Shown here piece after piece: positions 18,854 through 60,187 of a stretch of DNA of 64,000 nucleotides. Below the pieces are notes generated by a model. That model was not told where the DNA came from. It worked only from the letters and a program-made list of their open reading frames with translations, and did no database searches. Each line of letters starts with the position of its first letter. The stretch's first letter is position 1. Origin of the DNA: Minisyncoccota bacterium (GTDB lineage Bacteria > Patescibacteriota > Minisyncoccia > Phycocordibacterales > UBA2100); the NCBI GenBank assembly GCA_043780835.1, contig JAYWCB010000010.1, positions 2,845 to 66,844 on the forward strand, written 5' to 3'. A program made the position numbers and the translations under genes.

Positions 18854-19013
18854 AGTTATATTTTGACCTTTGTATTCCTGGCATTCAATAAAAGAATGCG
18901 AGGAACCGTACACGTATTCATTCGACGTGATTACCTGTACGTTTGTTTTGCGAACCCTCTATTAATAGAGTGTCCACTAATAATGTATTTGCTAACCCTT
19001 GGCTCCTTGCTAA

Positions 19014-35315: not shown

Positions 35316-35678
35316 GCAAAGAAATTGTACATCCTCTGGCTTCCCATACGGCGCAACATGGCACGGGATGAGCGTTTTGGAATCGGCAAACGAATCGACG
35401 AACTTTTGTTATCTGCACTCGAACAATTGCGAGAGGCTTCGTATAGCTCGGGAAGCGGAAAAATAACACTCCTCGGCAAAATTTTGCAAAGCACCGATCT
35501 GCTTCGCTTTTTCTTCCAATTGGCGTGGGAAGGTCAAATTCTCCAACAAAGACAGTACATTCTCCTTGCGGAAAATACGGAGAGTCTCGGCAAAATGGTC
35601 GGCGGATGGCGCAAAGGATTGATTGCAAAAACCCCGCCCCAAGAAAATAAATCCGTGAGCGGGGAAAGAAAAGAGTAG
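35256..35678 (+). CDS. avd: Avd-like accessory variability determinant (four-helix-bundle protein)
   Basis: Helical ORF. LWLPIRRNMARDERFGIGKRIDELLLSALEQL is similar to the Bordetella phage BPP-1 Avd segment YLYPIAQSIPRKHGVAREMFLKCLLGQVEL. Lies on the strand opposite the RT and overlaps its annotated start by about 60 nt; start may instead be at Met35 (35358). Confidence 0.5.
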   Translation: MAENSPRLDPPQRLLPVIEHAKKLYILWLPIRRNMARDERFGIGKRIDELLLSALEQLREASYSSGSGKITLLGKILQSTDLLRFFFQLAWEGQILQQRQYILLAENTESLGKMVGGWRKGLIAKTPPQENKSVSGERKE

Positions 35679-35788
35679 CGAGACAGGACCTGGTTGCCGT
35701 CGTTCCACCTATTCGGGTTCTCGATCGAGTTGGCCTCTACATTCCAGCCACCGTTGTCGGAGTTCCAGTTGGCGTTGACCGCCCAGAG
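35677..35788 (-). repeat. DGR template repeat (TR), 112 bp, AAC/AAT-rich in sense orientation
   Basis: Identical to the VR except at 16 positions, all A in the minus-strand (sense) TR. Encodes …NANWNSDNGGWNVEANSIENPNRWNDGNQVLSR. Confidence 0.85.
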
Positions 35789-36035
35789 CCATATTGTGCA
35801 TTGAGTCACCTATGCCACTGCCCTTTGACTACTCTCAGAGCTGTATCGTATGTGGGACCTCAAAGTCCTCCAACGCAATGCACCGATTCTTAATCTTTTT
35901 TAAGAGCTTCTGCTCGCGCGCTTCCAAGAGATCTCTCCGTTGAAATTCTGACGATGCAAATAACCCGAGGCGCTGCGTGAAATTTGTTACACGTCACACC
36001 AGAGCACTCCTCGCTATGTAGTATACAAAAGAAAA

Positions 36036-36071
36036 GACCCTCTGAAACTGTTTTTAAAGTTTCAGAGGGTC
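36036..36071 (-). terminator. perfect 14-bp hairpin (gaccctctgaaact / agtttcagagggtc) about 50 nt downstream of the VR; terminator and/or DGR cruciform element
   Basis: Direct reading. Confidence 0.55.
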
Positions 36072-36122
36072 AGAAAAGCTGAGGGTTTAAAGTAAAACCC
36101 CAAAGAGAACAAGTGAGAAGAA

Positions 36123-36722
36123 TCAGCGAGACAGGACCTGGTCGCCGCCGCCCCACCTACGCGGGTCCTCGATCGAGTTGGCCTCTACACCCCAGCCACC
36201 GCCGTCGGAGCCCCAGCGGGCGTAGACCGCCCAGAGGATGCCGTTCACGTCGCGGATATACACAATGTTGGCATACCCGCTGGTGAGGAGCGGTCCGACT
36301 TCGCCCTTGCCCTGCTTCGAGAGCAGCGCAAAGAACTGACCGAGCTTGATCTCGCACTTTTCGGCGAGTACCGTAATGATCGGAGTATCGAGCGAGTGTT
36401 CCAGGAGCTTGTGCGCCTTGATGTCGGAGGCATCGCAGATACCCTCAAAAAGTCCGAGGAAGTTCGTGCTGAAGTTGTGGCCGATCCATGCAATACGCAC
36501 CGCAGCCTTCTTTGTGTCGACCGTGAAGTAGTCGGCAGCCTTAAAACCTTCGACGCCGGCGACCGAGGTGGTCGTCACGAGTTCGAGGAGCTTCTTGGGC
36601 TCGCTCGGCTTAGCGACAACGACATGTAGATCTCCGGCGAGTAGACGCATGAATGCGTCTTCGCCCCCGATCTTGTTGATGCCCGCCTCAATCTGGCCAA
36701 GGGTGAGATTGCCATATTTCAT
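36123..36722 (-). CDS. DGR variable (target) protein, 199 aa, no signal peptide
   Basis: C-terminal 37 aa encoded by the VR (…WAVYARWGSDGGGWGVEANSIEDPRRWGGGDQVLSR*). Confidence 0.75.
   Translation of the reverse strand: MKYGNLTLGQIEAGINKIGGEDAFMRLLAGDLHVVVAKPSEPKKLLELVTTTSVAGVEGFKAADYFTVDTKKAAVRIAWIGHNFSTNFLGLFEGICDASDIKAHKLLEHSLDTPIITVLAEKCEIKLGQFFALLSKQGKGEVGPLLTSGYANIVYIRDVNGILWAVYARWGSDGGGWGVEANSIEDPRRWGGGDQVLSR
36125..36236 (-). repeat. DGR variable region (VR)
   Basis: 112-bp copy of the TR with all 16 differences at TR adenines. Confidence 0.85.
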
Positions 36723-40609: not shown

Positions 40610-42424
40610 TTAGTCTTCGCGCTCGTATAAGAGGTCGTCGGGCAGACGGAACAGCCCTTCATCGTTTCGCTTTTGTTCGATGAAATGAGAAATGAATCCC
40701 ACCGTACGTGGAATGATAAACAGTGCATTGAAAAATTCCGCGTCGAGCAGTTCGCCTATCTCCTGGTTGGAGTACCCGTCCTTTTCCTGCAAGAGATCGA
40801 GTACGAGTGCCGCCATGACGCCGTCAACATTTAAAATAAGATTACCGTTTTTTGCAGTCGTCACGGATTCAATGGCACGAGCAAAATCGTAGTGCGGATG
40901 TCGAGAAAGCAGTTCTGCAAATTCTGAGAGTGCTGCCACGCGCGGATCAGGAATACCGACCCGATATTTTCTATGACCGATCCCGGAGAGCAACTGCCCT
41001 GCCTTATTTTTTGCTTCCACATACGCGGCAGCGTCGGCGGCTGATGTCATGCCGTCGTGCCAACACCGTGCCGCATCGTTCACCGCGCCGCCAAAGCGCG
41101 GACCAACGGTCAGGAGTCCGGAGACCAGCGAAGAAACCATATCTTTCCCTGCGCGCGCGGTCACCATAGTGTTTACCGCGCCGGACACATGACCACCGTG
41201 ATCAATCAGAAGTTCAAATATATTTTCTACACATGCGGCTGTTTCTGCAGACACGGTGCGGCCGAGCAACGCCTTAAGAGCCGCAGCGGCAAATGCGTTT
41301 TCAGGCTGCTTCGTGAGCGTCCCACCCTTTACAAAAACCGGAACCGCATCGAGGTCGACTATTTTACGCGATGAAAGAATACTTGGTTTCCGTTCCATAA
41401 ACACCTTCGTATCAATGACCGTATCATGAATGAGTGGGAGCGAAATCTCGGCGAGCGCATGCAGAAAAAGAGGAAAGGTTTCCGGCGCGATCGCACCCGC
41501 ACTATTGAGCGCGTCACGTTTTGCACGCGCGCTTTCATCCTTTCTCGCAACAAGTGCCTTTGCATGCCCGAATTGCATTCGCTCATCAAATGCTTCGTCT
41601 ATGATTCCGGCAATGTAACAAATGATGGGTTTCGTGAGCTGTTTTGATTTCAGTAGTTCAACGATTTCATATTCGTCTGCGCCACCGAGTTCGCCAAAAT
41701 ACACAATCGCCTTTGTGGCGGGATCAGATTCTGCCAGTGCGAGAACCTGTGAAAGTGCCGTGACCGGAAACCGGTCGCCACCGATCGAGAGAGAAAACGA
41801 CACGCGCTTCCCTGCCTGCACTACGGCGCGAATCAGCTCATTGGTCATACCTCCGGATGTAGACACGACCGCAACAGATCCTTCGGTTGCAAGTTTCCCC
41901 GCTTCGATTTGTGCCACATCTGTACCGCCGATCGCACCAAGTTTTAAGTATTTTGGAACGAGTAATCCCACGCCGGATGATCCGGCGATAAGATAGTTCG
42001 CCCCAAATTTCGCAATGAGCTCGGTCGCGTGATTTTCAGGTACGTTTTCAGCAAAGAGATGTCCGCCGAGTGCATCAGGAAACGCAGAAAAGAAACCGAT
42101 TGTTGAGGCGAGGGTGCGACGTCCTGACAGGGCGTTGAGCATCCATTGCACGCGAGCATGCGATGCTTTCGGGACATGCGCATAGTCGCGATAGCATGGG
42201 ATCAGAATCTCTGATGTGCCGAAAAAGAATTTCTGAGCTTTTCGCGTGCCGGAAATGATCCCGATAATAGACGGACGAGATTTGCCTGAAAGCGCATCGA
42301 AATCAAGTATGGACTGCACAATTCCCGGATGATTTCCGACGACGAGAATCCCGTCTGCTCCACTTCGTATTCGTTCAATGAGCGTCATATTATTGAATGA
42401 AAACAATAGCTTCTTCCACTGCAC
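40610..42424 (-). CDS. aclA: ATP-citrate lyase large subunit-like (CoA-binding/CoA-ligase + citrate-synthase-like C-terminal domain)
   Basis: Succinyl-CoA-synthetase-alpha-like N-terminal half. C-terminal GIGHRKYRVGIPDPRV matches the citrate synthase/ACLY GIGHRVKS…NPDMRV motif. Confidence 0.6.
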   Translation of the reverse strand: MQWKKLLFSFNNMTLIERIRSGADGILVVGNHPGIVQSILDFDALSGKSRPSIIGIISGTRKAQKFFFGTSEILIPCYRDYAHVPKASHARVQWMLNALSGRRTLASTIGFFSAFPDALGGHLFAENVPENHATELIAKFGANYLIAGSSGVGLLVPKYLKLGAIGGTDVAQIEAGKLATEGSVAVVSTSGGMTNELIRAVVQAGKRVSFSLSIGGDRFPVTALSQVLALAESDPATKAIVYFGELGGADEYEIVELLKSKQLTKPIICYIAGIIDEAFDERMQFGHAKALVARKDESARAKRDALNSAGAIAPETFPLFLHALAEISLPLIHDTVIDTKVFMERKPSILSSRKIVDLDAVPVFVKGGTLTKQPENAFAAAALKALLGRTVSAETAACVENIFELLIDHGGHVSGAVNTMVTARAGKDMVSSLVSGLLTVGPRFGGAVNDAARCWHDGMTSAADAAAYVEAKNKAGQLLSGIGHRKYRVGIPDPRVAALSEFAELLSRHPHYDFARAIESVTTAKNGNLILNVDGVMAALVLDLLQEKDGYSNQEIGELLDAEFFNALFIIPRTVGFISHFIEQKRNDEGLFRLPDDLLYERED

Positions 42425-43538
42425 GCGTGATCACATCATCAGAGCCATGTACCGAGCCAAAAAGTCTCTCTTTTTCCAAAAAAGATTTCATAAGGGACAG
42501 ACCAGCCGCTTCATTAGGTCCGCCGCGTCGCACAAACACGCGAATTCCCTGTTCCCTTAATGGCGCTGCGACTTCCGAAAGCGCATCGATAATGCCCAGA
42601 AACGTCTTTTTTACGTCGGTGAAATTGGCAACGCCGCCGGCAATCACGAGTGCTTTTTTGGGCGCCTCAGATGCAAGGAGGAGCGAGAGGATTTCTTTTG
42701 CATATAAATACGTCTCCTCGCGCGTTGGTCCACCGCTGTATTCGCCGTAGTTGGCAAGGAGCGATCCCGCACCCTGCAATTGCACTTCATCGGCGATGAC
42801 GATGGATCCACCGCCGCCGGAGAGCAGGAAAAAGAGGGCGCCGTTCGGATTGATTACCGAGAGCTTCAGCGACGCGGGGGTTGTTGCGGCAAGAGCTTCA
42901 ACGCGACTTTCTGCCGGATGTTTTGCTTTTTGTTTGATGACATCGGAATCAGTCCACGAATCTCGCAGGAAAAATTCGCCCGCACTGTCGACGAGCGCCG
43001 CCGCATCGAGCAAAACTGCGGATCCATTTAAAACGACGAGCGGATTGATTTCGAGAAATGCAAAAAATTCTTTTTCGAACGCATCACCCACGCGCGCAAA
43101 AAACGCTTCCGGTATACCGGTCGACGATGCGATTGACGCCACGTCTTCTTTTTTTGTAAGCATGTATGTATGCACCGCTTCGGGATGCGCTTCGATATCG
43201 ACGCCTCCGTCTTTTGCGTGCAAAACGCGAATTCCGTCCCGCACACGCTCAAATGATATGTATTGATCGAGGGTCGCATCGTGATCCATGTATGGGTCGA
43301 GCAAGAATTGCGTGAATCCTTTTTCCTCCCACGCCGCTATCGCAGATTTAATTTCTGCGTCGCTTTTATCCACCACAAGAAGCCCCTGCTTGAAGCGCTT
43401 CTTGATCCCTTGATCCACCTTTGCGACCCACCGCCCCGCTGGAATAGAAATCGCTCCTGTGTGCAATTGCACACCGGTATACGAATCTCCGAGAAGGATT
43501 TTCTTCGCCTTATATTCGCTGAGCTTTACACGCGCCAT
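42390..43538 (-). CDS. aclB: ATP-citrate lyase small subunit-like (ATP-grasp, SucC-like)
   Basis: MARVKLSEYKAKKIL… SucC/AclB-type N-terminus. Overlaps aclA by 35 nt. Confidence 0.6.
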   Translation of the reverse strand: MARVKLSEYKAKKILLGDSYTGVQLHTGAISIPAGRWVAKVDQGIKKRFKQGLLVVDKSDAEIKSAIAAWEEKGFTQFLLDPYMDHDATLDQYISFERVRDGIRVLHAKDGGVDIEAHPEAVHTYMLTKKEDVASIASSTGIPEAFFARVGDAFEKEFFAFLEINPLVVLNGSAVLLDAAALVDSAGEFFLRDSWTDSDVIKQKAKHPAESRVEALAATTPASLKLSVINPNGALFFLLSGGGGSIVIADEVQLQGAGSLLANYGEYSGGPTREETYLYAKEILSLLLASEAPKKALVIAGGVANFTDVKKTFLGIIDALSEVAAPLREQGIRVFVRRGGPNEAAGLSLMKSFLEKERLFGSVHGSDDVITRAVEEAIVFIQ

Positions 43539-50508: not shown

Positions 50509-50544
50509 AAAAAGCAACAACCCCTCATATGAGGGGTTGTTGCT
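50509..50544 (-). terminator. intrinsic terminator after rplK
   Basis: gcaacaacccctcatatgaggggttgttgc plus a T-tract on the minus strand. Confidence 0.7.
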
Positions 50545-50558
50545 GGATGTAGGAGTGT

Positions 50559-50987
50559 TTACTTCGTGTCGACGTCGACGCCCATGGATCGGGCAGTTCC
50601 CGCGATGATCTTTTTTGCGTGCTCCAAATCGAGCGCGTTCAAATCTTCCATTTTTTCGGTTGCAATATCCTCGAGCTGTTTCTGAGAAAGCTTTGCGATC
50701 TTGGTTGAATGCGGCTTGTCGGAGCCTTTATCCTTGCCTATTGCCTTGAGGACGAGGCGCGATGCCGGCGGCTTCTTGATGATGAATGTGAATGTTCGGT
50801 CCTTGTAGACGTTCATGACAACCGGAACGATGGTGCCCGCGAGCGGTCGAGTGAGCGTATTGAACTGGTTGACGAATTCACCGATATTGACGCCGGCCGG
50901 GCCGAGCGCCGTACCAACCGGTGGCGCAGGAGTGGCAGCACCCGCTGCAATCTGCAATTTAATGATTTTTGTGATTTCTTTTGCCAT
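50559..50987 (-). CDS. rplK: 50S ribosomal protein L11
   Basis: [35 protein letters not shown]…. Confidence 0.95.
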
Positions 50988-51004
50988 AAATATTTAGTTT
51001 CTGT

Positions 51005-51550
51005 TTATACACGCTGCACCTGATCTGCTTCGAGCTCCACCGGAGTCTCACGCCCGAACATCGGAACTAACACCTTAACCTTTCCGCGCTCTTCGTCAAT
51101 CTCGCCCACTTTTCCTTCCAAGTCTTTGAAGGGTCCGTCGACGATCACCACCGCGTCTCCTTCTGCAAGATCAATCGCGTGGCGAACAGTATCCCCCTCG
51201 GTGCGCTTGAGAATCTTCTCAACTTCCGCCGGCTCGAGCGGCACGGCCTGGTTTGCGGTACCGACGAATCCGGTTACCTGCGGTGTGTTTCGTACCACAC
51301 TCCATGCGTCATCCGTTGCAACCATGTCTACGAGCACATAGCCCGGGAAGATCTTTTCTTTCGTTTCAGTGCGCTTACCGTTTTTAATCTTGATCTTCTT
51401 TTCGGTCGGGACAACGACATTGAAAATCCGGTCACTCATGCCGAATGATTCGACACGCTGGCGAAGATTGCGGGCGACCGCGTCTTCATACCCGGAATAG
51501 GTATGCACCGCGTACCACTGTCGCTCCGTTCCGTATGTTTGTTTTGCCAT
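51005..51550 (-). CDS. nusG: transcription antiterminator NusG
   Basis: WYAVHTYSGYE… NGN domain; KOW domain with GPFKDLEGKV. Confidence 0.9.
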   Translation of the reverse strand: MAKQTYGTERQWYAVHTYSGYEDAVARNLRQRVESFGMSDRIFNVVVPTEKKIKIKNGKRTETKEKIFPGYVLVDMVATDDAWSVVRNTPQVTGFVGTANQAVPLEPAEVEKILKRTEGDTVRHAIDLAEGDAVVIVDGPFKDLEGKVGEIDEERGKVKVLVPMFGRETPVELEADQVQRV

Positions 51551-51574
51551 AGCGAAATGCTGTTATCAATAATA

Positions 51575-51853
51575 TTACTTCTTGCTTGTAGGAATACTGA
51601 AGTCGATCGGAGTCGTGGTTGAGGTGGACGAAGCCACAGGCGTGGTCTGCTGCGTCTTCGAAGCGACGGGCTGCACACCGGCGAGACGCGCAAGCGTCGT
51701 GGTGAATAAGAAGTCGAAAAAGCCCAAATACAGTGCGATGAAAAGTGAAATAGCGATAACGAGCGCCGTGTAGACGGTGGTCTGCGCACGCGTCGGCCAC
51801 GAAACGTGACGGAGTTCTGCCTGTGTTTCTTTGATGTAACTGAGTACGGACAT
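51575..51853 (-). CDS. secE: preprotein translocase SecE (with Thr/Ser-rich C-terminal tail)
   Basis: …KETQAELRHVSWPTRAQT… plus a single TM. Position upstream of nusG. Confidence 0.75.
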   Translation of the reverse strand: MSVLSYIKETQAELRHVSWPTRAQTTVYTALVIAISLFIALYLGFFDFLFTTTLARLAGVQPVASKTQQTTPVASSTSTTTPIDFSIPTSKK

Positions 51854-51921
51854 ACGGTCAATCGGTTAGTTGTGTGGCTAAAAATTAGACATTTTTAAAA
51901 CCCCTTCCGGGGCTTGTATGT

Positions 51922-51949
51922 ATAATATCTCTTTTTAGTGGAGTGTCAA
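51922..51949 (-). promoter_or_regulatory. consensus sigma70-like promoter for secE-nusG-rplK (TTGACA, 16 nt, TATTAT)
   Basis: Minus-sense reading: gaTTGACActccactaaaaagagaTATTATacat. Confidence 0.55.
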
Positions 51950-51987
51950 TCCCTGCGACTTCTCTGCGACGCAGGGATATGCGTGCG

Positions 51988-52278
51988 CTATTTTATGGTG
52001 GTGAGGAATTTCACGAGGGCTTTTGCTTGAGGATTTTTCGAGATCGCATAACACATCATGCGGCCGGACTTTTTTGAGGTCACAATATCGGCACCCGCCA
52101 GAACTGCGAGTTGATGGCTTACTGCCGAGTGCGTCATATCAAGCTCCTCTGCTATATCTTGCACCGCAAGCTCCTTGTGTTTTGCTAATGCAAAGAGAAT
52201 CGATGCGCGGGTTGAGCTTGCAGCTAGTTTTAATAATCGTGCAGCATGCGCGGCGCGCTTTCTTTCGGCAGTTCCCAT
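51988..52278 (-). CDS. ArsR/SmtB family transcriptional regulator
   Basis: …RASILFALAKHKELAVQDIAEELDMTHSAVSHQLAVL…. Confidence 0.7.
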   Translation of the reverse strand: MGTAERKRAAHAARLLKLAASSTRASILFALAKHKELAVQDIAEELDMTHSAVSHQLAVLAGADIVTSKKSGRMMCYAISKNPQAKALVKFLTTIK

Positions 52279-52282
52279 ATAG

Positions 52283-53098
52283 TTATCGAATTTCGTACGT
52301 AATATTTACCTGAGACGTTATTTTGTTCTGTCCCGTCGGAATTTCTGGTGAAGGCGGGGTGGCTGCTGTTGATTTCGCCATAGAATCCATCGCGACACCC
52401 CCGCGTGCATATGCATAGGGCTGGTTGGAGTTTTCACTAAACCCGACGACTCGTACGATCGACACACCGAGAGAGCCGGCGAGCTTCTCCGCTTTCACCT
52501 TTGCGTCTGCGATTGCCTTGTCGCGAGCGTCTGCCTCAAGCTTGTTTTGATCGTCGATAGTGAAAGAAAGTCCCGATACGGTAGACGCGCCGCGAGAACC
52601 TACCCCTGAAAGCAATTCCCCCGCTTTGGTGGTGTCTTTTACTTTCACCGTGAGGGTTTGCGTGACCTCAAAACCGACGAGTTTCTGTGAACCCGGTTGG
52701 CAGTACCCTGTGGAACAAACACCATTGGAATATTCATACTGCGGATTCACATTGTAATCAGTAGTCTGGATGTCTTTTGCAACAACGCCGGCGTTTTTGA
52801 GGTACGCAACAACGTCGTTGTTCTTTTTTGTTGCAGCAGTTTGTGCTGTTGCAACGTCTTTTGCGCGCTCCTGAATCGTGACGCTAAAGGTGGCGGTATC
52901 AGGCACTGCAAACACATCTCCCGTGCCTGACACACTAATCGTATTACTTGCGGAAACTCCGCTTCCGATAAATGCGATACTCTTGAATGCATACATTGTT
53001 GCGGCGAGGAGAAAAAACGCAAGGAGCGCAAGCGCAAGTGTGCCTGCGGTTTTCATCCAGTACGTGGTGCGTGCAATATCCTGTTCTGTTGGAGTCAT
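52283..53098 (-). CDS. SIMPL/DUF541 domain protein (YggE-like), membrane-anchored
   Basis: N-terminal TM. ISVSGTGDVFAVPDTATFSVTI… is typical of DUF541. Confidence 0.6.
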   Translation of the reverse strand: MTPTEQDIARTTYWMKTAGTLALALLAFFLLAATMYAFKSIAFIGSGVSASNTISVSGTGDVFAVPDTATFSVTIQERAKDVATAQTAATKKNNDVVAYLKNAGVVAKDIQTTDYNVNPQYEYSNGVCSTGYCQPGSQKLVGFEVTQTLTVKVKDTTKAGELLSGVGSRGASTVSGLSFTIDDQNKLEADARDKAIADAKVKAEKLAGSLGVSIVRVVGFSENSNQPYAYARGGVAMDSMAKSTAATPPSPEIPTGQNKITSQVNITYEIR

Positions 53099-53162
53099 AA
53101 AAAATGAAGGAAATATTAATTTTTAAACATAGTACCATCCTGACGCTCCGTTCAGGTTGGGC

Positions 53163-53360
53163 TTACATGTTTAAGGTTGCGCTGTAGGTAGAGAGGTACG
53201 AAGGAATAGCAAATATGAGTCCGATGAGGGGTAGTACTACGGCAAGAACAGAAACGATAGCCGCAACGAGGAAGTATTTCCTTGTCTTTTCTGCTGAAAC
53301 GTAGACCATTTCGACCTTCTGTTCTATTGAGTCGATGCGTTTTTTGAGTTCAGGATCCAT
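53163..53360 (-). CDS. small membrane protein
   Basis: Single TM. Confidence 0.3.
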   Translation of the reverse strand: MDPELKKRIDSIEQKVEMVYVSAEKTRKYFLVAAIVSVLAVVLPLIGLIFAIPSYLSTYSATLNM

Positions 53361-53393
53361 ACAGCAAGTATATCAGCCGCCTGTGGGCGGCTT

Positions 53394-54077
53394 TTATGAT
53401 TGTACGTCACCCATAAAGAGACGATATTCGCTTTCGAATGCCCAGATTGAAATCCGGTAGATTCCGTATGTAATAAAAAACGCCGAGGCGATATCAATGG
53501 AATAATGAATATGCCCCATTAATACGATGATAACGAAAAAGAGACACGATCCCATGAAAACGTTTCGGATCCAGAGCACATGTGAATATGCGAGCGCCCC
53601 GAGAAATGTCATACCGGTATGGCCAGAGAAAAACTGATCCGAGCCGAAAAATGCATTCGTAATCGTTGCGCCGAAGTTACTTGCGTAGTGGGCCTCGGGC
53701 GGCCCCAGATGCGTGAGGAGCGTGAAGCCTGATCGTACCAATATGAAGAGTGTCAGTCCGTGCAATACAAACGGAATACTTTTCGGCTGAGAGAGGACAA
53801 TGAGTGTCGCAAACGCAATCACAACGAACGTGCCGTAGACGAAAAATTCGTCAACCTCGAACACCGGGAAGTTTGAAAGTAATAGGTCTTCAACAGCAGG
53901 ACCGGCCTGCACGGTGGCCCGCTCAATCGCCCAGAAATTCACGTACAGGGCACCACAGAGTACGAGCAAAGATACCAAGAGAGAAATTACGTACCCCCGC
54001 GTATGCCACACGGCGCTGTAATCGCGAGCAAGTCGTGAAGCGCTCAACCATGCCGCTGCTGTGGGCGTTGTTGCCAT
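53394..54077 (-). CDS. PAP2-superfamily membrane protein (sphingomyelin-synthase-like)
   Basis: SGHTGMTF and GHIHYSIDI resemble PAP2 motifs 2 and 3. Confidence 0.45.
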   Translation of the reverse strand: MATTPTAAAWLSASRLARDYSAVWHTRGYVISLLVSLLVLCGALYVNFWAIERATVQAGPAVEDLLLSNFPVFEVDEFFVYGTFVVIAFATLIVLSQPKSIPFVLHGLTLFILVRSGFTLLTHLGPPEAHYASNFGATITNAFFGSDQFFSGHTGMTFLGALAYSHVLWIRNVFMGSCLFFVIIVLMGHIHYSIDIASAFFITYGIYRISIWAFESEYRLFMGDVQS

Positions 54078-54097
54078 GAACGAAAGTATACCGCCGC

Positions 54098-54739
54098 GTG
54101 CACCGTGCGCGAACAGTGAACAGGTATACTTTGGCCATGGAATTTGCCTCGCTTACTTCGCTCGTCCTTGCCTATCGCTACTGGATCATCTTTCCTATTG
54201 CTTGCATCGAGGGACCGATCTTTTCGCTGTTTATGGGCACTCTTGCAGCGCTCGGATATTTCGACGTTTTTCTTGCCTACCCTATTTTAGTTGCGGGCGA
54301 CCTTATCCCGGATGCGGTCTTGTACTACATCGGTAAACGGGGCCAACGTTCACGTCTGATTGAAAAGTACGCGAGCAAAATCGGTATCAGCGGTGGAAAC
54401 TTCGCACCAATTGAGCGCATGTGGCACGAACATCCTCGCAAAATGATGGCTTTTGCGAAACTTGCACTCGGGCTTTCGACTCCGCTGTTGGTGTCGGCGG
54501 GGCTTGCCGGAGTAAAACCCCGCATTTTTTTCGGCGTTGCGATTCCCGTAGCACTCGCACAACACGTGGCACTACTGGCCCTTGGTTTCTATTTCGGGAA
54601 TTCGTATGAATTTGTAAAACGATATATGGGACACGCCGAATTTCTTATCATTATGGTTGTTGTGTTCGGATTTCTCTATTACCTCTTTGCGCGACGTATG
54701 AAACGACAATTCTTAAAGAAGGAGAACGCAATGCAATGA
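54098..54739 (+). CDS. dedA: DedA family membrane protein
   Basis: …PIACIEGPIFSLFMGTLAALG…VAGDLIPDAVLYYIGKRG…. Confidence 0.7.
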   Translation: MHRARTVNRYTLAMEFASLTSLVLAYRYWIIFPIACIEGPIFSLFMGTLAALGYFDVFLAYPILVAGDLIPDAVLYYIGKRGQRSRLIEKYASKIGISGGNFAPIERMWHEHPRKMMAFAKLALGLSTPLLVSAGLAGVKPRIFFGVAIPVALAQHVALLALGFYFGNSYEFVKRYMGHAEFLIIMVVVFGFLYYLFARRMKRQFLKKENAMQ

Positions 54740-55866
54740 AAATAGCAATCTGCACTGACATGTACCTGCCGCAGCTCGGCGGCGTTGCGGATTCCGTTGT
54801 GCTACAGGCACGGAGTTTGCGTGGACTCGGGCACGACGTGCGCATATTCGCTGCGCATATGCGTGGCGAGGCAGCCGACCCACTCGTAACGCGTTTTACG
54901 TCGATCGAACTATTCGGTGGTACGTTTTGCATCGTCTCCCCCTTCGGCATTCACACGGCACTCAAAACATATCGCCCGGATGTGATTCACGTGCACTCAT
55001 TCGGCACAATCGGACTCATGGCGCGATACACTGCAAAGAAACTGGGCATTGCGGCGGTCGGCACCAATCACAGCTCTCCCGTTGATTATCTGCATTATTT
55101 TTACTTGGACGCCGAGCCGTTTCGCTCTTTAATTCTGCGATTTGTAGCGTGGTTTTACGGAGGGTTTCATGTAGTTACCACTCCGACGTCGCAACCGATG
55201 GACGTACTCCTGAGCGCCGGCCTGCGGCGCGTTATGACGACGATCATTTCAAATGCAGTCGATGTCGGGGCATTTCGTCATTTTGATGAGAAAGAGACAC
55301 TCCGTGATCGCATCGGTCTCTCGCATCGAGCGGTCCTCGTCTTTGGCAGACTGGCCAAAGAAAAGAATCTCGATCAAGCCCTCAAAGTATTTGCAGAAGT
55401 CCATAAGCGAACAAACGCGCAACTCGTCATCATCGGTGACGGACCCGCACGGGACGAACTCGAGACTCGTGCCCGCTCGCTTGGTATAGCGCAACAGACG
55501 TTTTTCATGGGCCGCCTGTCCGGTGATGCGCTTGTTGCGGCGATCAATGCGTGTGACGTTATGCTCACGACCAGCCGCTCCGAAATACAACCGATGACCA
55601 TTCTGCAAGTGAATATATGCGGCGTGCCCGTTGTCGGCGCACGTGCAGGTGGCGTGCCGGAGTGTATCGATGACGGGGTCTCCGGCTACGTCGTCGATCC
55701 GGAAGACACGAATGCATTCGTAGACCACGTTTCGCGGCTTCTATCGGATCACTCGTTGGCCGAGAAAATGGGAAGGGCTTCGCGTGAGCGCGTTTCCAGA
55801 TTCGATCCGGTAAAAATAGCGCTTCAATGGGAACGACTTTTTCGCACATTACCCGGCGTTATTTGA
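54736..55866 (+). CDS. glycosyltransferase family 4 (GT-B)
   Basis: MKIAICTDMYLPQLGGVADSV… and C-terminal E-x7-E region. ATGA overlap with dedA. Confidence 0.75.
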   Translation: MKIAICTDMYLPQLGGVADSVVLQARSLRGLGHDVRIFAAHMRGEAADPLVTRFTSIELFGGTFCIVSPFGIHTALKTYRPDVIHVHSFGTIGLMARYTAKKLGIAAVGTNHSSPVDYLHYFYLDAEPFRSLILRFVAWFYGGFHVVTTPTSQPMDVLLSAGLRRVMTTIISNAVDVGAFRHFDEKETLRDRIGLSHRAVLVFGRLAKEKNLDQALKVFAEVHKRTNAQLVIIGDGPARDELETRARSLGIAQQTFFMGRLSGDALVAAINACDVMLTTSRSEIQPMTILQVNICGVPVVGARAGGVPECIDDGVSGYVVDPEDTNAFVDHVSRLLSDHSLAEKMGRASRERVSRFDPVKIALQWERLFRTLPGVI

Positions 55867-56371
55867 CGTGGCGATACATAGGCCGAATGCACAACAGATA
55901 CACGTTGGCCAGTGTGAAGAGCCCTGCACCGAACCATGCGGCAGGCAACGCTACGGATGTGCGGGTAAGACCGAGCACAACGACACATAAGGCAGTACCC
56001 AGAAGATCGATGAATATCTTTTTTCGAAGCGTTGCATTGTACGGCGTCTTTCCGAGCAGGTTGGCGTATTTTACGGGAGCAATCGCAAACACAATGAGTG
56101 CGAAAAAAGAAAACGCGAGCGGCGTCCCGATTGAAAGACCCAAAGCGATGTACGCAACCATGAGCGCGAGGTCGATTGCAGTTTGAATGATAGACGTAGG
56201 TGTCCACGCGCTATAAAAACGGACCGAGAAATACGTATTAATGGTGAGCACTGTATAAAAAAGTGCATTCGGCAGGGTGAATTGCGATACCGTATCGTGA
56301 AAAAACAAAGACGAGATCCCGACGATAGAAAAGAGGATTGTTGCGGCGAGTGCGCGAATTGCAGGCGTCAT
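55859..56371 (-). CDS. polytopic membrane protein
   Basis: 5 TM-like segments. Confidence 0.4.
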   Translation of the reverse strand: MTPAIRALAATILFSIVGISSLFFHDTVSQFTLPNALFYTVLTINTYFSVRFYSAWTPTSIIQTAIDLALMVAYIALGLSIGTPLAFSFFALIVFAIAPVKYANLLGKTPYNATLRKKIFIDLLGTALCVVVLGLTRTSVALPAAWFGAGLFTLANVYLLCIRPMYRHVK

Positions 56372-56373
56372 AT

Positions 56374-57087
56374 TTATCGGATGTCTTTATACTGTTCGTG
56401 GTACGGACGACCAAATAATACCGGCCACCAGAAATTGAGTATGTAGTTCATATTCGTGCGGAAATATCCCTCAGCTGCAAAGCGCCGCATCGACGTGATG
56501 ATGTAAAAATCCATTCTGAATACCGTCTTCCCCTGCGTATGCAATCGTTTTGCGAGCGTCATATCCTCTCCGTAAAATACAACGTCCGGATCAAAACCAC
56601 CGATCGCCTCCATCGCGCTTCGACGCACGATAAAATTTGCGCCGAATAGCATGTAACCGATTGCTCGATACATGAGCGGTGCGCTCGCCCACCATCCGAG
56701 ACTGAGCTGCAATCGCCAGAGCATGGACGGCGCATCGAAATATTTTGCCGGGCCACTCCACGAGACGCCGTTCGGATAGCGCGCAATAAGCCGCTCAGCA
56801 GTGCTGTACCACTGCGCAGGCAATCGACAGTCCGCGTCAATATATGCGACGAACTCACTGGTCGTTGCTTCTAGTCCTGCCTGCCGCGCTTTGGTGAGCC
56901 CTTTATCTGTGACCTGCACTATGCGTACGCGCGGATAGCGTCGTACAATTTCTGCAGTCTCATCGGTGGATGCGTTGTCTATGACGACGATTTCCTTGAA
57001 ACGTGCAGCGTGCGCAACCACCGAATCGAGGCACGGTCCGATGTACTTCGCCTCGTTATGAGCGGGAATTACCAGAGAAATTTCCAT
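56374..57087 (-). CDS. glycosyltransferase family 2
   Basis: SLVIPAHNEAKYI…IDNASTDET…YIDADC. Start taken at MEISLVIPAHNE. Confidence 0.8.
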   Translation of the reverse strand: MEISLVIPAHNEAKYIGPCLDSVVAHAARFKEIVVIDNASTDETAEIVRRYPRVRIVQVTDKGLTKARQAGLEATTSEFVAYIDADCRLPAQWYSTAERLIARYPNGVSWSGPAKYFDAPSMLWRLQLSLGWWASAPLMYRAIGYMLFGANFIVRRSAMEAIGGFDPDVVFYGEDMTLAKRLHTQGKTVFRMDFYIITSMRRFAAEGYFRTNMNYILNFWWPVLFGRPYHEQYKDIR

Positions 57088-57149
57088 ATTGGACGACGTA
57101 ACCTTCATAGTACACAACTACATACACCGATATTTCATTTTTCGCCAGT

Positions 57150-57547
57150 CTGGGCGGCTATAGATCAATGGGTGAAGCGCCCGCGTTTTTGAATTATTTT
57201 GGGCAGTAGGTCACGGTCAAGCGCTCGATCCTGCGCCGTCGCGCAGAATCTCCGCCTGACCACGCGCGGGCATCCCCGCGTACTCGCGGGGCCCCAGCCC
57301 TTGCTTTCGATTCCCTGTAGCCGTCCACAAAATAAAATTCATCAACGCTTCGCGTTTTTGAATTATTTTGGGCGGCTACAAGTGAATAGGCCAAGCGCTC
57401 GAAATGTTGCCGTCGCAACATTTCTCCGCTCGGCCCTGCTCACGTCGTCCCGCCTGCTGGCGGGTCCCGCGACGCTCGCTTTCGATTCCCGATAGCCTGC
57501 ACCAAAAAGCATATTACAGAAACGCTGCGCGTTTCTTCCATTGTTTT
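57150..57547. repeat. tandem array (about 2.5 units of about 175 bp) next to tRNA-His. Each unit carries a tRNA-His 3'-end copy (tgggcggctacag), hairpins H1 (GC-CGTC-GC) and H2, and an inverted copy of the tRNA T-arm/acceptor (ttcgattccctgtagccg)
   Basis: Direct reading. Direct repeats at 57152, 57201 (degenerate), 57369 and 57548. Covarying hairpin stems between units. Confidence 0.7.
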
Positions 57548-57622
57548 TGGGCGGCTACAGGGAATCGAACCCTGATCGAGAGCTCCACAAGCTCCAGTGT
57601 TAACCGTTACACCATAGTCGCC
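57548..57622 (-). tRNA. tRNA-His (anticodon GUG) with encoded G-1
   Basis: Cloverleaf folds with D-stem GTGT/ACAC, anticodon arm GGAGC-TTGTGGA-GCTCT, T-arm CAGGG-TTCGATT-CCCTG. Confidence 0.8.
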
Positions 57623-57681
57623 ATCTCCTCTAACAATTGATTTATAGCAGAATCAAGCCCGCAGCGCGAACGCGTATGCAC

Positions 57682-58779
57682 CTATCGTGTCTCCTGCAAA
57701 AGATTTATGACTGTATCGCGCACAACGGTAAAGTTGATCCGTCCAATAAACTGCCCTCGTTCAGTAAGCACGTTTACGCGCCATGATCCGGGTTCCGGGT
57801 TTTGTTTTTGAGAATACCCGCGGAAACCGCCATCGCGCCCGCCGCGTATTTCAAACCTGACATCGCCTCGTGTTTCCCATTGCCTCGTTCCCTTGTTATA
57901 AAACTGCCACTGATGGCGCAGGATCGTGGAAAGGCCTGATGGTGCAAATACAGCGGTGAATACATACGCATTATCACCGTCGTTGAGTGCGATGTGTGCG
58001 GGTATACCGAGATAGCGAACTCCAAACGATTTCATTTCCCCGCTCAACGTATATTCGTTTTCCGTTCGCTCTACGAGATGATAGACCCCTCCCTCTTTGA
58101 GCGCGAGTGGAAGTGGAGGAATAATATTGGAGAAATACAGCACATTGAAGAGCATAAAGAGGGCGGCGAGTGAGCGCGTAGTCGTGGACTGAGCGGCAGT
58201 GAACCGTTCCGGCGTGAGTGCACGCAACAGTCCGGTAAACAATCCGATAATAACAACGCTCGAAGCGCCCGCAAGCAAAAACATGGCGGGACCGATCGTT
58301 TTAAATATGAGCGGCAAAAAGAATATAAAGAAAGAAAACAGCGTGGTGAAGTACATCGATATTTGAAATGGAAGTTTTTGATACAGCATGCGAAACCGCT
58401 CATTTCCGATAAGCATGAATGCAAGCGCGAATACAAAGACCCACGACACCGCGACACCTGCGCTGCGACTGTATAAACTCACATACCCGCTAAATAATGC
58501 GCCAAAGAAAAATTGCACCGCAACTGGAAGAAATGGCGACACGGTAAGCAAAAATCTCTGTTCAACACGACCCGACTCTATCAGATTGAGTAATACAATC
58601 GCGATACCGACGAGTACAAGATACGAAAGCATCAACATATTTCCGAATGGTGCGTCCACGCGCTTCAGCACGATGAAATTATCAATCAAAAAGCCCGCAA
58701 TGAGTGAGAGCGGAGAGATGTAACGCTCATACCATTGAATGAGCTCTTCTATATTCTGAGGAAGATACTGACGGATCAT
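57682..58779 (-). CDS. membrane protein with several N-terminal TM helices and a C-terminal extracytoplasmic domain
   Basis: Hydrophobicity pattern only. Confidence 0.45.
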   Translation of the reverse strand: MIRQYLPQNIEELIQWYERYISPLSLIAGFLIDNFIVLKRVDAPFGNMLMLSYLVLVGIAIVLLNLIESGRVEQRFLLTVSPFLPVAVQFFFGALFSGYVSLYSRSAGVAVSWVFVFALAFMLIGNERFRMLYQKLPFQISMYFTTLFSFFIFFLPLIFKTIGPAMFLLAGASSVVIIGLFTGLLRALTPERFTAAQSTTTRSLAALFMLFNVLYFSNIIPPLPLALKEGGVYHLVERTENEYTLSGEMKSFGVRYLGIPAHIALNDGDNAYVFTAVFAPSGLSTILRHQWQFYNKGTRQWETRGDVRFEIRGGRDGGFRGYSQKQNPEPGSWRVNVLTERGQFIGRINFTVVRDTVINLLQETR

Positions 58780-58844
58780 GGATATAGAAATAATAGCAAA
58801 TCCACCGGTCCCCCAGGTATTTGAATACGAGTCGTTTCAATAAC

Positions 58845-58875
58845 AAAAAGCCGGATATCGATCCGGCTTTTTGTT
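58845..58875. terminator. bidirectional intrinsic terminator (aaaaagccggatatcgatccggctttttgtt)
   Basis: Downstream of tRNA-Leu. Confidence 0.65.
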
Positions 58876-58897
58876 ATGGACTTTTTTCCAATTTTTG

Positions 58898-58982
58898 TGC
58901 CCGGGACAGGACTCGAACCTGCACGCCCATAACAGGCTTTACCACCTCAAGGTAAAATGTCTACCAATTTCAACACCCGGGC
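58898..58982 (-). tRNA. tRNA-Leu (anticodon GAG), class II with long variable arm
   Basis: Acceptor GCCCGGG/CCCGGGC, anticodon arm TTACC-TTGAGGT-GGTAA, T-arm GCAGG-TTCGAGT-CCTGT. Confidence 0.8.
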
Positions 58983-59036
58983 ATCACTGCTTCGCGATTA
59001 TACGCATCGCTTTCACTATTATCAATCTGATGTACA

Positions 59037-59070
59037 CAAAAGGCCCCGAGTGGGGCCTTTTGTGTTTGTT
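59037..59070 (-). terminator. intrinsic terminator after rplS (aaaaggccccgagtggggcctttt…)
   Basis: Hairpin with flanking tracts. Confidence 0.6.
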
Positions 59071-59072
59071 TT

Positions 59073-59528
59073 TTATGCCTGTTCGATTGCGGCTGACTCT
59101 TCGGCAGAGGGAGTTGCAAGTTCAATCGGCGCCTGGTCTTCTTCAAGACCCGTAACAACCGGTGCCGCCGACTTATTGACGAGGACGGTGCGGCGAAGCA
59201 TACGACGAGCCTCGCGAGCAACTTTGTCGCGAAGGAAATAGAGCTTGGCGCGGCGCATAGTTGCGCGCTTTACGATCTCAATTTTGTCGATCATCGGAGA
59301 ATAGAGCGGGAAAATCTTCTCGACACCTACACCACTCGATACACGGCGAACCGTAAAAGTACCGCCTGCCTCCGTGCCGTGCTTGCGCGCGAGTACGAGA
59401 CCCTCGAATGTCTGGATGCGGGTTTTGCCCTTTTCCTCGATTTTCTGGTGCACACGAACAGTGTCTCCGGAGCGGAGGTCTAATGTCTTGCGTGCTTGCA
59501 CATCTACCGGTGAAATTGTGAACGCCAT
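59073..59528 (-). CDS. rplS: 50S ribosomal protein L19 with C-terminal extension
   Basis: …[34 protein letters not shown]…[31 protein letters not shown]…AKLYFLR. Start taken at MAFTISP. Confidence 0.85.
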
Positions 59529-59730
59529 AACGTCGCGGCACTGTAACATGCAGGACCTGCAAGGGCAAATTACTATAGAAAAGGACCGGAAGCGTGTGCT
59601 CACGGCCCTTTGTAGTGCGGCTCAGCCGCGAAGATCAATGGCCGCCGTGGCCGTCTTCGTCGTTGGCAACATTCATCTCGAATTAAACACAAGAAGACCG
59701 ACAGCAGCTGTCGGTCTTCTTGTGTTTCTG

Positions 59731-59803
59731 TGGGCGATACAGGACTCGAACCTGTGACCTTCGCTGTGTAAAAGCGTTGCTCTACCAACTGAGCTAATCG
59801 CCC
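59731..59803 (-). tRNA. tRNA-Val (anticodon UAC)
   Basis: GGGCGATTAGCTCAGTTGGTAGAGC…TTTACAC…GGTTCGAGTCCTGTATCGCCCA. Confidence 0.75.
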
Positions 59804-59839
59804 GTTCCGCATCACCTTATCGTATTTATGTCTTTACAC

Positions 59840-60075
59840 CAATTGCCCTCGGTTGGAAACGCCCGCGACTAAACGATTGCCGTCGCAATCGCTTGTCTGG
59901 GCACCGCCTCACTGTCTCGCAAGCTTGCGAGACATCGTTCCGGCGTTCGATTCCAACACGCACAGCGCGCAGGCGCTGTGCTCTCGGTCAAAACATACGT
60001 TTTGCCCTTCGGTATCTGGGAAACCCACGGTTTTCCCAAGCCTTCCTCCACGGGAAACTTCCGTTTCCCGCCCCC
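59840..60075 (-). ncRNA. highly structured spacer between tRNA-Val and tRNA-Arg. Hairpins: H1 gattgc-CGTC-gcaatc; tgtctcgcaag/cttgcgagaca; cacagcgc-gcag-gcgctgtg; cgggaaac-ttcc-gtttcccg. Also an inverted T-arm-like segment ggcgttcgattccaac. Possible co-transcribed ncRNA or repeat-element copy
   Basis: Direct reading of multiple perfect stems; no protein-coding potential. Confidence 0.35.
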
Positions 60076-60115
60076 TTCCCTAACCGAGGACACCTCGTTC
60101 GCTTCGCTCACTCTG

Positions 60116-60187
60116 TGCCCCCGGTTGGAATCGAACCAACATAGACGGCTTAGAAGTCCGCTGCACTATCCATTGTGCTACAAGGGC
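60116..60187 (-). tRNA. tRNA-Arg (anticodon UCU)
   Basis: Acceptor GCCCTTG/CGGGGGC (two G-U pairs), D-stem GCAC/GTGC, anticodon loop CTTCTAA, T-arm GTTGG-TTCGATT-CCAAC. Confidence 0.7.

Follow-up and report, generated by a model that had tools for sequence, protein, structure and literature searches.

What is the array of repeated, foldable sequences that lies directly behind the tRNA-His gene in a 64,000-nt stretch of Minisyncoccota bacterium DNA (contig JAYWCB010000010.1, positions 2,845 to 66,844; the whole stretch is called the window here)? A sequence-only reading of the window had described units of about 175 bp that combine copies of the tRNA-His 3′ end with covarying hairpins, and had offered three origins for them: a relic of serial integration and excision at the tRNA end, an element akin to a miniature inverted-repeat transposable element (MITE), or a structured RNA array. 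Comparison with related loci leads us to favour, by a modest balance of probability, an undescribed family of structured elements that act as a single strand, most likely as RNA, on the tRNA-sense strand 3′ of tRNA genes in Kaiserbacteria-like members of the candidate phyla radiation (CPR). The phenomenon reaches far beyond tRNA-His and beyond the window.

The tRNA-His gene is on the minus strand, so that lower coordinates lie downstream of it, and it does not encode CCA. We use the label a for the last ~20 nt of tRNA-His (T-loop to discriminator), the sequence that is copied in the units. Two diverged units of 179 and 169 nt follow the gene, and then a 49-nt internally deleted remnant; read from the gene on its own strand, the order is S2, unit 2, S1, unit 1, remnant. 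In the list, CM R1 denotes a covariance model of the unit core, and MFE the minimum free energy.

57549–57621, minus strand: tRNA-His(GTG) gene (ARAGORN; Rfam RF00005, 56.8 bits)
57505–57548, minus strand: spacer S2, an A-run, the hairpin GAAACGC-GCA-GCGTTTC (57518–57536) and a T-run; 98% identical to S2 of another species
57481–57504, minus strand: inv2, the inverted copy of unit 2, antisense to the tRNA T-loop, T-stem 3′ strand and acceptor 3′ strand
57382–57490, minus strand: core of unit 2, type 2 (CM R1 115 bits; MFE -71.3 kcal/mol, z -6.5)
57369–57389, minus strand: dir2, the direct copy of the tRNA 3′ end in unit 2, in the host-type TGTAGCCGCCC form
57328–57368, minus strand: spacer S1 with the hairpin AACGC-GAA-GCGTT
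57306–57327, minus strand: inv1, the inverted copy of unit 1, which agrees with the tRNA-His of its own genome
57208–57315, minus strand: core of unit 1, type 1, folded as unit 2 (CM R1 113.5 bits)
57200–57216, minus strand: dir1, the degenerate direct copy of unit 1
57151–57199, minus strand: remnant with an internal deletion, in which the 5′ half of a spacer of S1 type is joined to a core end and a direct copy (…CTATAGCCGCCCA)

The direct copies, inverted copies and hairpins reported by the sequence-only reading are all present where it had placed them, far above chance. Direct copies of the tRNA-His 3′ end (TGGGCGGCTACAG) occupy 57151–57163 and 57369–57381 with one mismatch each, the gene's own end lies at 57548–57560, and a degenerate copy lies at 57200–57216. 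Inverted copies of the T-loop, T-stem and acceptor are found at 57306–57331 (26 nt, 92% complementary to the tRNA-His gene) and 57481–57497 (17 nt, 88%). The inverted-copy motif GCTTTCGATTCCCNNTAGCC occurs three times in the window and the core motif twice exactly, each against an expectation of 0.09. The quoted hairpins do differ between units by compensatory stem changes, and the periodicity was recovered, with start-to-start spacings of 169–179 nt. The leftmost of the proposed units holds up in part: its repeat ends exist, but 57151–57199 retains only the start and the end of a unit.

Tandem Repeats Finder reported no array here, since identity between the two cores is as low as 67%, and the same divergence makes a collapsed-repeat artefact unlikely. 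A Logan contig from an independent assembler (SRR23617225) equals window positions 50515–58927 at 100% identity, possibly from the same reads. The window genes form a typical CPR housekeeping set, and the best named relatives of the DUF2914 protein beside the array are Candidatus Kaiserbacteria, Paceibacterota and Parcubacteria. The tRNA-His gene itself has an A4:C69 mismatch in its acceptor stem (57549–57621). Only two base pairs, both compensatory and both at the foot of the T-stem (CAGGG/CCCTG versus TCGGG/CCCGA), set it apart from that of the closest relative, L018 (L numbers denote collected loci and contigs).

Among the three origins proposed earlier, the structured RNA array is the best supported, by a conserved three-way junction, strong covariation and a strand-specific G:U signature. 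RNAalifold, applied to a MAFFT alignment of 13 units, yields 36 pairs, 20 of which show compensatory double changes. Across 19 distinct matches to the covariance model, 96.8% of cells pair and double changes occur in 26 of the 36 pairs; none of 500 shuffles reaches any observed value, and pairing falls to 34–48% when the partners are slid by 1–3 columns. The 19-match alignment was fitted to the model, which favours structure, and the MAFFT-based result on 13 units agrees with it. The closing helix joins the complement of the T-stem 3′ strand to the direct copy. In hairpin A, an internal loop (GGGG/AU) separates the outer stem from the inner one, which is capped by an AGCA loop, while stem C pairs GGYCRRGCG with CGCUUGRCC through conserved G:U pairs and continues across an internal loop GAG/CGAG into hairpin B with its GACG loop; all of these parts can be read in the core of unit 2. 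Other core types follow the same folding plan, namely type 4 (behind tRNA-Arg(TCT) in the window and tRNA-Gly in L032, 75% identical to each other) and type 3 (behind tRNA-His in Saccharibacteria), in which 17 bp of closing helix reproduce the tRNA tail without a mismatch.

The fold also reveals which strand is structured. G:U cells outnumber A:C cells by 36 to 2 in one count and by 48 to 4, over 19 pairs, in another, identifying the tRNA-sense strand as the structured one. Single-sequence folding agrees, since the plus strand of unit 2 reaches only -59.8 kcal/mol (z -4.3) against the minus-strand value listed above. The window has too weak a GC skew to tell the leading from the lagging strand. 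A functional tRNA-His-like RNA from the plus (anti-tRNA) strand, beginning GGGCGGCUAC and ending ...GCACCA before a good terminator, would agree with spacers that score as terminators directly after the unit and with the NCCA that ends His units on that strand. However, the 48 G:U cells would become A:C mismatches, folding is weaker, and the NCCA, for which the ...CCCA end of the gene itself accounts, is not seen in Gly, Arg, Val and Leu units. We rejected this scarcely credible reading on the G:U/A:C asymmetry. Templating of the inverted copy on a mature tRNA with CCA, in the manner of a retroviral primer-binding site, was rejected as well: the 'TGG' comes from the gene's own ...CCCA end, and non-His units lack it.

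How far does this fold extend? Searched over 477 kb of collected sequence, CM R1 gave 22 matches of 95–121 bits, every one 3′ of a tRNA (His, Gly, Arg-tcg, Arg-gcg, Val or Leu) and on the strand of that tRNA. The same ~108-nt three-way junction was found in this way in about ten related Kaiserbacteria-like CPR contigs, and in all proximal units the core starts 53–59 nt from the tRNA 3′ end. Units follow tRNA-His in the syntenic loci of relatives; a two-anchor pattern in JGI metagenomes recovered the core behind tRNA-Gly(GCC), tRNA-Arg(TCG), tRNA-Arg(GCG) and one tRNA truncated at a contig end, and the tRNA-Val and tRNA-Leu units were first recovered by CM R1. In the 9-kb locus L014 a unit follows three of four tRNA genes, and about half of the tRNA genes in the examined loci carry at least one conserved folded cassette. 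The genome of the window has a further unit ~7 kb past the right edge, and a second locus lies within the window.

59844–60114, minus strand: second locus, downstream of tRNA-Arg(TCT) (60115–60187); CM R1 37 bits, E 6e-6

This locus comprises a divergent 'type 4' core (59854–59955), a direct copy (59844–59859), a hairpin (59960–59981), an inverted copy split between 60082–60093 and 59946–59955, and a 159-nt spacer with many extra hairpins.

No description of the element was found in the searched full-text literature. In Rfam 15, window positions 56500–58500 gave only the tRNA itself and two chance hits on it at E≤10, and the whole window at gathering score gave four tRNAs only, with no unit matching any family (tmRNA, T-box, omega RNAs, group II intron and small ribozymes included). 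ARAGORN likewise called four tRNA genes in the window and no unit as a tRNA or tmRNA. The units have no similarity to INPHARED phages or PLSDB plasmids, and CM R1 confirmed none of 34 pattern matches in viral contigs. The pattern GCTTTCGATTCCCNNTAGCCN{2,5}CCA had zero matches in metagenomes, being too specific to the tRNA-His of its own genome. A His-specific pattern run over genome contigs gave nine chance matches and one real relative, in a Saccharibacteria metagenome-assembled genome (MAG).

In that Ca. Saccharibacteria MAG (CAZMYZ010000010.1; L010:7431-8000 and L004:1-1984), two identical ~200-nt units flank 2.3 kb beside tRNA-His. Within these 2.3 kb are genes for a cyclodipeptide synthase (PF16715, 38.5 bits) and for GrpB, and behind each of the two comes another repeat that ends ...GACGTCGCCC(A). 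The cyclodipeptide synthase family uses aminoacyl-tRNAs. A separate gene association is seen in the lineage with Gly and Arg units (L028:3226-4716; also L030 and L032), where a CCA-adding enzyme/poly(A) polymerase-family gene with an HD domain lies directly 3′ of tRNA-Arg, and in L030 directly 3′ of the unit of tRNA-Arg.

What distinguishes the units of one tRNA from those of another is the flank. The inverted and direct copies match the adjacent tRNA from T-loop to discriminator in every unit, and not a tRNA-His located elsewhere; in L030 and L032 the inverted copy is complementary to the adjacent tRNA at 19–21 of 19–21 nt. The closing helix also covaries apart from the tRNA, as in L033, where inverted and direct copies have TGC and the tRNA has TAC, and in the Val unit of L021, which shows a compensatory change from G:C to U:A. 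The cores, in turn, group by type regardless of the tRNA: type 1 is shared by His and Gly units and type 2 by those of His, Gly and Arg, a third type accompanies Val and Leu, and hairpin modules are shuffled among core types.

Flanks specific to His, Gly, Arg, Val or Leu on the same core types defeat, in its plain form, the earlier suggestion of a MITE whose terminal inverted repeats mimic the tRNA. An ordinary MITE, moved by a transposase and resembling the tRNA end by chance in its own inverted repeats, would share with the units a small and foldable body, inverted ends and a flanking direct repeat. Bacterial MITEs and intergenic repeats available for comparison include Correia, RUP, ERIC, REP/BIME and the IS200/605-derived PATEs, and like these the units are small, non-coding, foldable, repeated, strain-variable and capable of mediating rearrangements. 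However, the inverted ends change with the neighbouring tRNA on an unchanged core, making the unit ends target-derived rather than intrinsic to an element, and the DNA enclosed by the direct repeats does not itself terminate in inverted repeats. Position and strand relative to the tRNA are strict and the distance constant, the copies within a genome are diverged (58–87% identical, parts of genomes compared) with no near-identical multi-copy bursts, and covariation places the fold under selection. An ordinary MITE is therefore exceedingly improbable.

Could the units instead serve the tRNA beside which they lie? If they acted in cis within the transcript of the tRNA, their antisense segment would pair with the 3′ half or trailer of the pre-tRNA while the direct copy competes, tuning 3′ maturation, termination or stability. 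The fixed distance of 53–59 nt, the constant use of the tRNA's strand and the complementarity to the adjacent tRNA in L030 and L032 are all consistent with such a role, and the three mutually exclusive pairings (a, a′, a) recall the layout of an attenuator. Orthologous tRNAs that have no unit (tRNA-Leu and tRNA-Val of the window, tRNA-His of L018) weaken it, and tandem copies and the swapping of types would be odd for a dedicated regulator. The acceptor complementarity, moreover, decays in Val and Leu units while the core stays conserved. We consider a cis-regulatory role improbable.

The layout of the array also recalls genomic islands. Williams reportedly described partial-tRNA att repeats of tRNA-integrated islands in 2002. 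Direct repeats of the tRNA 3′ end that begin in the T-loop are the usual signature of islands in tRNA genes (PMC9897764). With these islands (PMC9897764) and with tycheposons (bioRxiv 10.1101/2020.12.28.424599) the units share a repeat that starts in the T-loop and reaches a few bases into the trailer, an intact tRNA and repeats, here of 13–18 nt, that stack downstream of it. Inert attL/attR scars, left by repeated integration and excision of integrase-bearing islands, would produce direct repeats stacked in this way. In contrast to such islands, a unit measures only 130–210 bp and holds no open reading frame (ORF), integrase or cargo, and it has, in addition, a conserved structured core and a copy of the tRNA end in inverted orientation, at no fewer than five tRNA species in one clade. 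No island was found, and no tyrosine or serine integrase, either in the genes neighbouring the units or by Pfam among window ORFs of at least 190 aa. The same core stands behind five different tRNAs. The neutral decay expected of an island relic is also missing: cores are 82–92% conserved across species against 67% for the flanking gene, and their changes are compensatory. This covariation largely refutes inert scars, which we regard as highly improbable. From the earlier idea of a relic of serial integration and excision, the layout survives, with T-loop-starting direct repeats and gain and loss at those repeats; core conservation shows the word relic to be wrong.

Gain and loss can be followed within a single species, whose contigs were grouped by their identical DUF2914 proteins and upstream sequence. 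Three alleles occur behind its tRNA-His, [U1], [U2] and [U2-U1], with identical flanks, and the double allele has the unit order of the window. Single and double alleles differ exactly at the repeated tRNA tail or the repeated spacer. Similarly, the difference between L028 and L032 is exactly one type-4 unit of 209 nt, with a perfect repeat of 18 nt, GATTCCCCGTATCCGCAC, at its borders. The inverted copy of this unit is perfect but split by a hairpin, like that of the type-4 unit in the window.

Part of the array has an identity above that of its surroundings. Between the window and L069, identity is 86% in tRNA-His, 98% in S2, 92% in inv2 and 92% in core 2, and then 71% in dir2, 69% in S1, 82% in inv1 and 82% in core 1; the flanking DUF2914 gene is 67% identical in nucleotides between the window and L016. 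Since S1 and S2 are equivalent spacers, the near-identity of S2, inv2 and core 2 points to recent exchange of a block between lineages. The T-stem of inv2 is consistent with this, having the CCCGATAGCC form found in the tRNA-His of L018 and of related genomes and not the CCCTGTAGCC form of its own genome, while both flanking copies of the tRNA tail are of the host type, CCCTGTAGCC. Transposition with a target duplication of ~15 nt and homologous conversion of an older resident unit would each account for a foreign inv2 between host tails.

Other signs of rearrangement were noted around these tRNA genes. The unit behind tRNA-Val in L015 (L015:2393-2629, compared with L014:267-504 and L014:3074-3320) has a Val-type left end and a Leu-type core, right end and downstream DNA; L015 also carries the ribosomal protein L19 gene twice, and the mixed unit arose either when units of different tRNA loci recombined or as a chimera of the assembly. 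The order and orientation of tRNA-Arg, tRNA-Val and tRNA-Leu vary among close relatives (window 58897–60187 against L014, L018 and L021): tRNA-Leu is inverted in L014, L017 and L018, and tRNA-Arg is inverted in the window relative to L014 and L021, which suggests frequent inversions around these genes. The Logan contigs L013 and L067 of this organism end inside tRNA-Leu and tRNA-Val, respectively (near window positions 58927 and 59775), and the start of L067 falls within another unit; tRNA genes and units seem to fragment short-read assemblies.

Allelic gain and loss, together with a discrete block of high identity bounded by copies of the tRNA tail, would also be expected of a non-autonomous mobile cassette that acts as folded single-stranded DNA. 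The stem formed by its inverted and direct copies would rebuild, as a duplex, the chromosomal target (the T-arm/acceptor end of the tRNA gene), to be recombined with that gene by a recombinase encoded elsewhere, and new cassettes would enter beside the tRNA. By analogy, integron attC sites recombine with attI, and the folded attP of phage CTX with dif. These attC sites and arrays, like the folded attP(+) of phage CTX and of integrative mobile elements exploiting Xer (IMEX), are imperfect palindromes of ~60–150 nt that act as one folded strand. Stems of the attC and CTX type repeat the primary chromosomal site, arrays adjoin that site, and cassettes are gained and lost. The units resemble attC in being single-strand-specific imperfect palindromes (48 G:U against 4 A:C) arrayed beside a primary site, here the tRNA. 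Their inverted and direct target copies lie ~100 nt apart, and the arrangement a - cassette - a′ - X - a reproduces the topology of an attI/attC array. Spacers that are perfect palindromes or carry GCGNAGC hairpins would suit a DNA cassette as well, as would the pair of identical Saccharibacteria units that flanks the 2.3-kb cyclodipeptide synthase and GrpB pair by tRNA-His.

Several features count against such a folded-DNA cassette. Neither the window nor the surroundings of any unit yielded a recombinase, no IntI integrase occurs among window ORFs of at least 190 aa, and there are no dif-like sites in the units and no IntI or Xer gene nearby. The R″/R′ boxes of attC (RYYYAAC/GTTRRRY) are missing, since the unit ends are tRNA-derived (…GGGAATCGAA / GATTCCC…) and hold no GTTRRRY. 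Where attC-type sites keep structure only, the units conserve core sequence, loops and internal loops; their stems copy the adjacent tRNA, their centre is a three-way junction of conserved sequence instead of a variable loop, and most cassettes are gene-less. A simple reciprocal crossover would leave the host-type tails and the foreign-type inverted copy unexplained, and crossover in the T-loop with another tRNA would yield a chimeric, non-functional tRNA. A folded-DNA cassette is, in our view, a possible but unlikely explanation.

Other known systems were compared as well. Like the tRNA-like domain of tmRNA, the bacterial Y RNA YrlA (PMC4201824), mascRNA and viral tRNA-like structures (PMC8127992), the units contain a helix of acceptor/T-arm sequence that ends in a discriminator, and by analogy this helix could recruit RNase P, RNase Z or the CCA-adding enzyme. 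Unlike these tRNA-like RNAs, they have a ~90-nt junction in place of the T-loop and no encoded CCA, and their mimicry follows the neighbouring tRNA and is degraded in older copies. Casposon-type (Cas1) insertion would involve a casposase and terminal inverted repeats besides a target duplication of 14–15 bp at the 3′ end of a tRNA. The units do show a duplication of 15–18 nt at the tRNA end; the inserted piece, however, lacks inverted termini, and the window yielded no Cas1. A retron is not indicated either, as the only reverse transcriptase of the window (34197–35315) lies 22 kb away within a diversity-generating retroelement and none adjoins the units of other loci. In contrast to a CRISPR array, the repeated tRNA tails are spaced by homologous structured units of ~160 nt, not by unique short spacers.

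The omega RNAs of TnpB and IscB, the bridge RNA of IS110 and the guides by which CRISPR-associated transposons (CASTs) home to tRNA genes all combine a guide with a scaffold. The units resemble them in joining a structured scaffold to 17–20 nt that match the adjacent target, the end of a tRNA gene, and in presenting another matching segment on the same scaffold at another target; this is a resemblance only. They differ in having no associated nuclease or recombinase gene, no match to the omega RNAs of Rfam and sense and antisense copies that pair with each other. No recombinase, transposase, Cas or reverse transcriptase gene was found adjoining the units. The units are placed in none of the named families, since they lack a defining feature of each family compared.

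We return, then, to the reading that we favour, a structured single strand that is most likely RNA. A cassette combines a spacer hairpin (S) with an inverted copy, which covers the T-loop and the 3′ strands of T-stem and acceptor, and with a core of ~90 nt that has two conserved arms. It is bounded on both sides by the last 14–18 nt of the tRNA, namely the tRNA's own end and the direct copy, and pairing of the inverted with the direct copy closes the three-way junction. The closing helix therefore presents the stacked acceptor/T-arm sequence of the neighbouring tRNA, a 'minihelix', followed by that tRNA's own discriminator and trailer. In the model that we propose, the tRNA and its array may be co-transcribed by read-through, which is plausible in that the His- and Gly-type spacers have no terminator score in the tRNA direction and score only in the opposite one. 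RNase P, RNase Z and possibly the CCA-adding enzyme would handle the tRNA-like ends, releasing discrete folded RNAs; because these tRNA genes do not encode CCA, the CCA-adding enzyme may act on unit ends too. Arrays would gain, lose and exchange cassettes through recombination at the repeated tails, and cassettes would also pass between lineages. The fold, its strand, the linkage to tRNAs at a fixed spacing, the tRNA-matched flanks, the gain and loss of alleles and the raised identity of one block between species are seen in the sequences; transcription, processing by tRNA enzymes, a cellular role of the RNA and the chemistry that first builds the inverted and direct flanks at a new tRNA are inferred.

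A more specific proposal, which we hold to be distinctly unlikely, makes the inverted copy a programmable targeting segment: its ~20 nt complementary to the tRNA 3′ end would direct insertion of its own RNA or single-stranded DNA cassette immediately 3′ of that tRNA, duplicating the tRNA tail, and re-templating would re-target it to other tRNAs. If so, the units would be guide-directed mobile cassettes that carry no protein gene and need a host or trans factor, and the RNA set free would mature as a tRNA mimic, perhaps with CCA addition or charging.

Several observations weigh against the reading that we favour. The acceptor part of the inverted copy has decayed in Val and Leu units, and the outward extension of the closing helix is patchy (ungapped counts of outward pairs are uninformative here, owing to 1-nt register shifts); a full acceptor-stem mimic is thus not kept universally. 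The spacers of Val and Leu units are long perfect palindromes (40 nt) with T-runs, which should terminate tRNA transcripts before the unit, and no promoter was found for the units. Unit copies inside one genome are 58–87% identical, unlike those of a recently active transposon; the differences between alleles fit insertion and repeat-mediated deletion alike, and the high identity of the S2–unit 2 block could reflect homologous gene conversion between species in place of transposition. Folded single-stranded DNA also tolerates G:T pairs, which leave the same signature as G:U, and this tolerance, together with the GCGNAGC motif of His and Gly spacers, makes a function at the DNA level conceivable.

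The GCGNAGC motif, known as an unusually stable DNA mini-hairpin, was noted (as GCGAAGC, GCGCAGC or GCGTAGC) on the tRNA-sense strand of His- and Gly-type spacers and at the starts of type-4 spacers. The sites in the window are 57344–57356, 57518–57536 and 60094–60114, and others occur in L014, L016, L024, L028, L030 and L032.

The remainder of the window contains a few further features of note.

34197–36722: diversity-generating retroelement
34197–35315, minus strand: reverse transcriptase ORF of the retroelement (Pfam RVT_1, 1e-23)
35256–35678: Avd-like ORF of the retroelement (NCBIfam DivGenRetAVD, 2.9e-15, below the cut-off)
35677–35788 and 36125–36236: 112-nt repeat pair of the retroelement, 86% identical, the second copy at the 3′ end of the ORF at 36123–36722 (minus strand)
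10135–13539 and 15416–18913: two giant ORFs of 1134 and 1165 aa with almost no family match, one with an LCAT-like segment
13639–14196: small protein with a PaaX central 'Cas2-like' domain
40610–43538: ATP-citrate-lyase-like gene pair

Genomes of the CPR (Patescibacteria) are tiny and leave little room for non-coding DNA, and yet cassettes stand behind about half of the tRNA genes in the examined loci. On the practical side, the units break short-read assemblies at tRNA genes, and their partial-tRNA signals can mislead annotation; they also appear to seed rearrangements between tRNA loci. If the cassettes are mobile, they would represent gene-less occupation of the safest address in a small genome, just 3′ of a tRNA, with flanks that adapt to each tRNA. 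If their RNAs are matured by the tRNA-processing machinery, they would constitute a new and abundant class of small RNA in a large and poorly understood branch of the bacteria.

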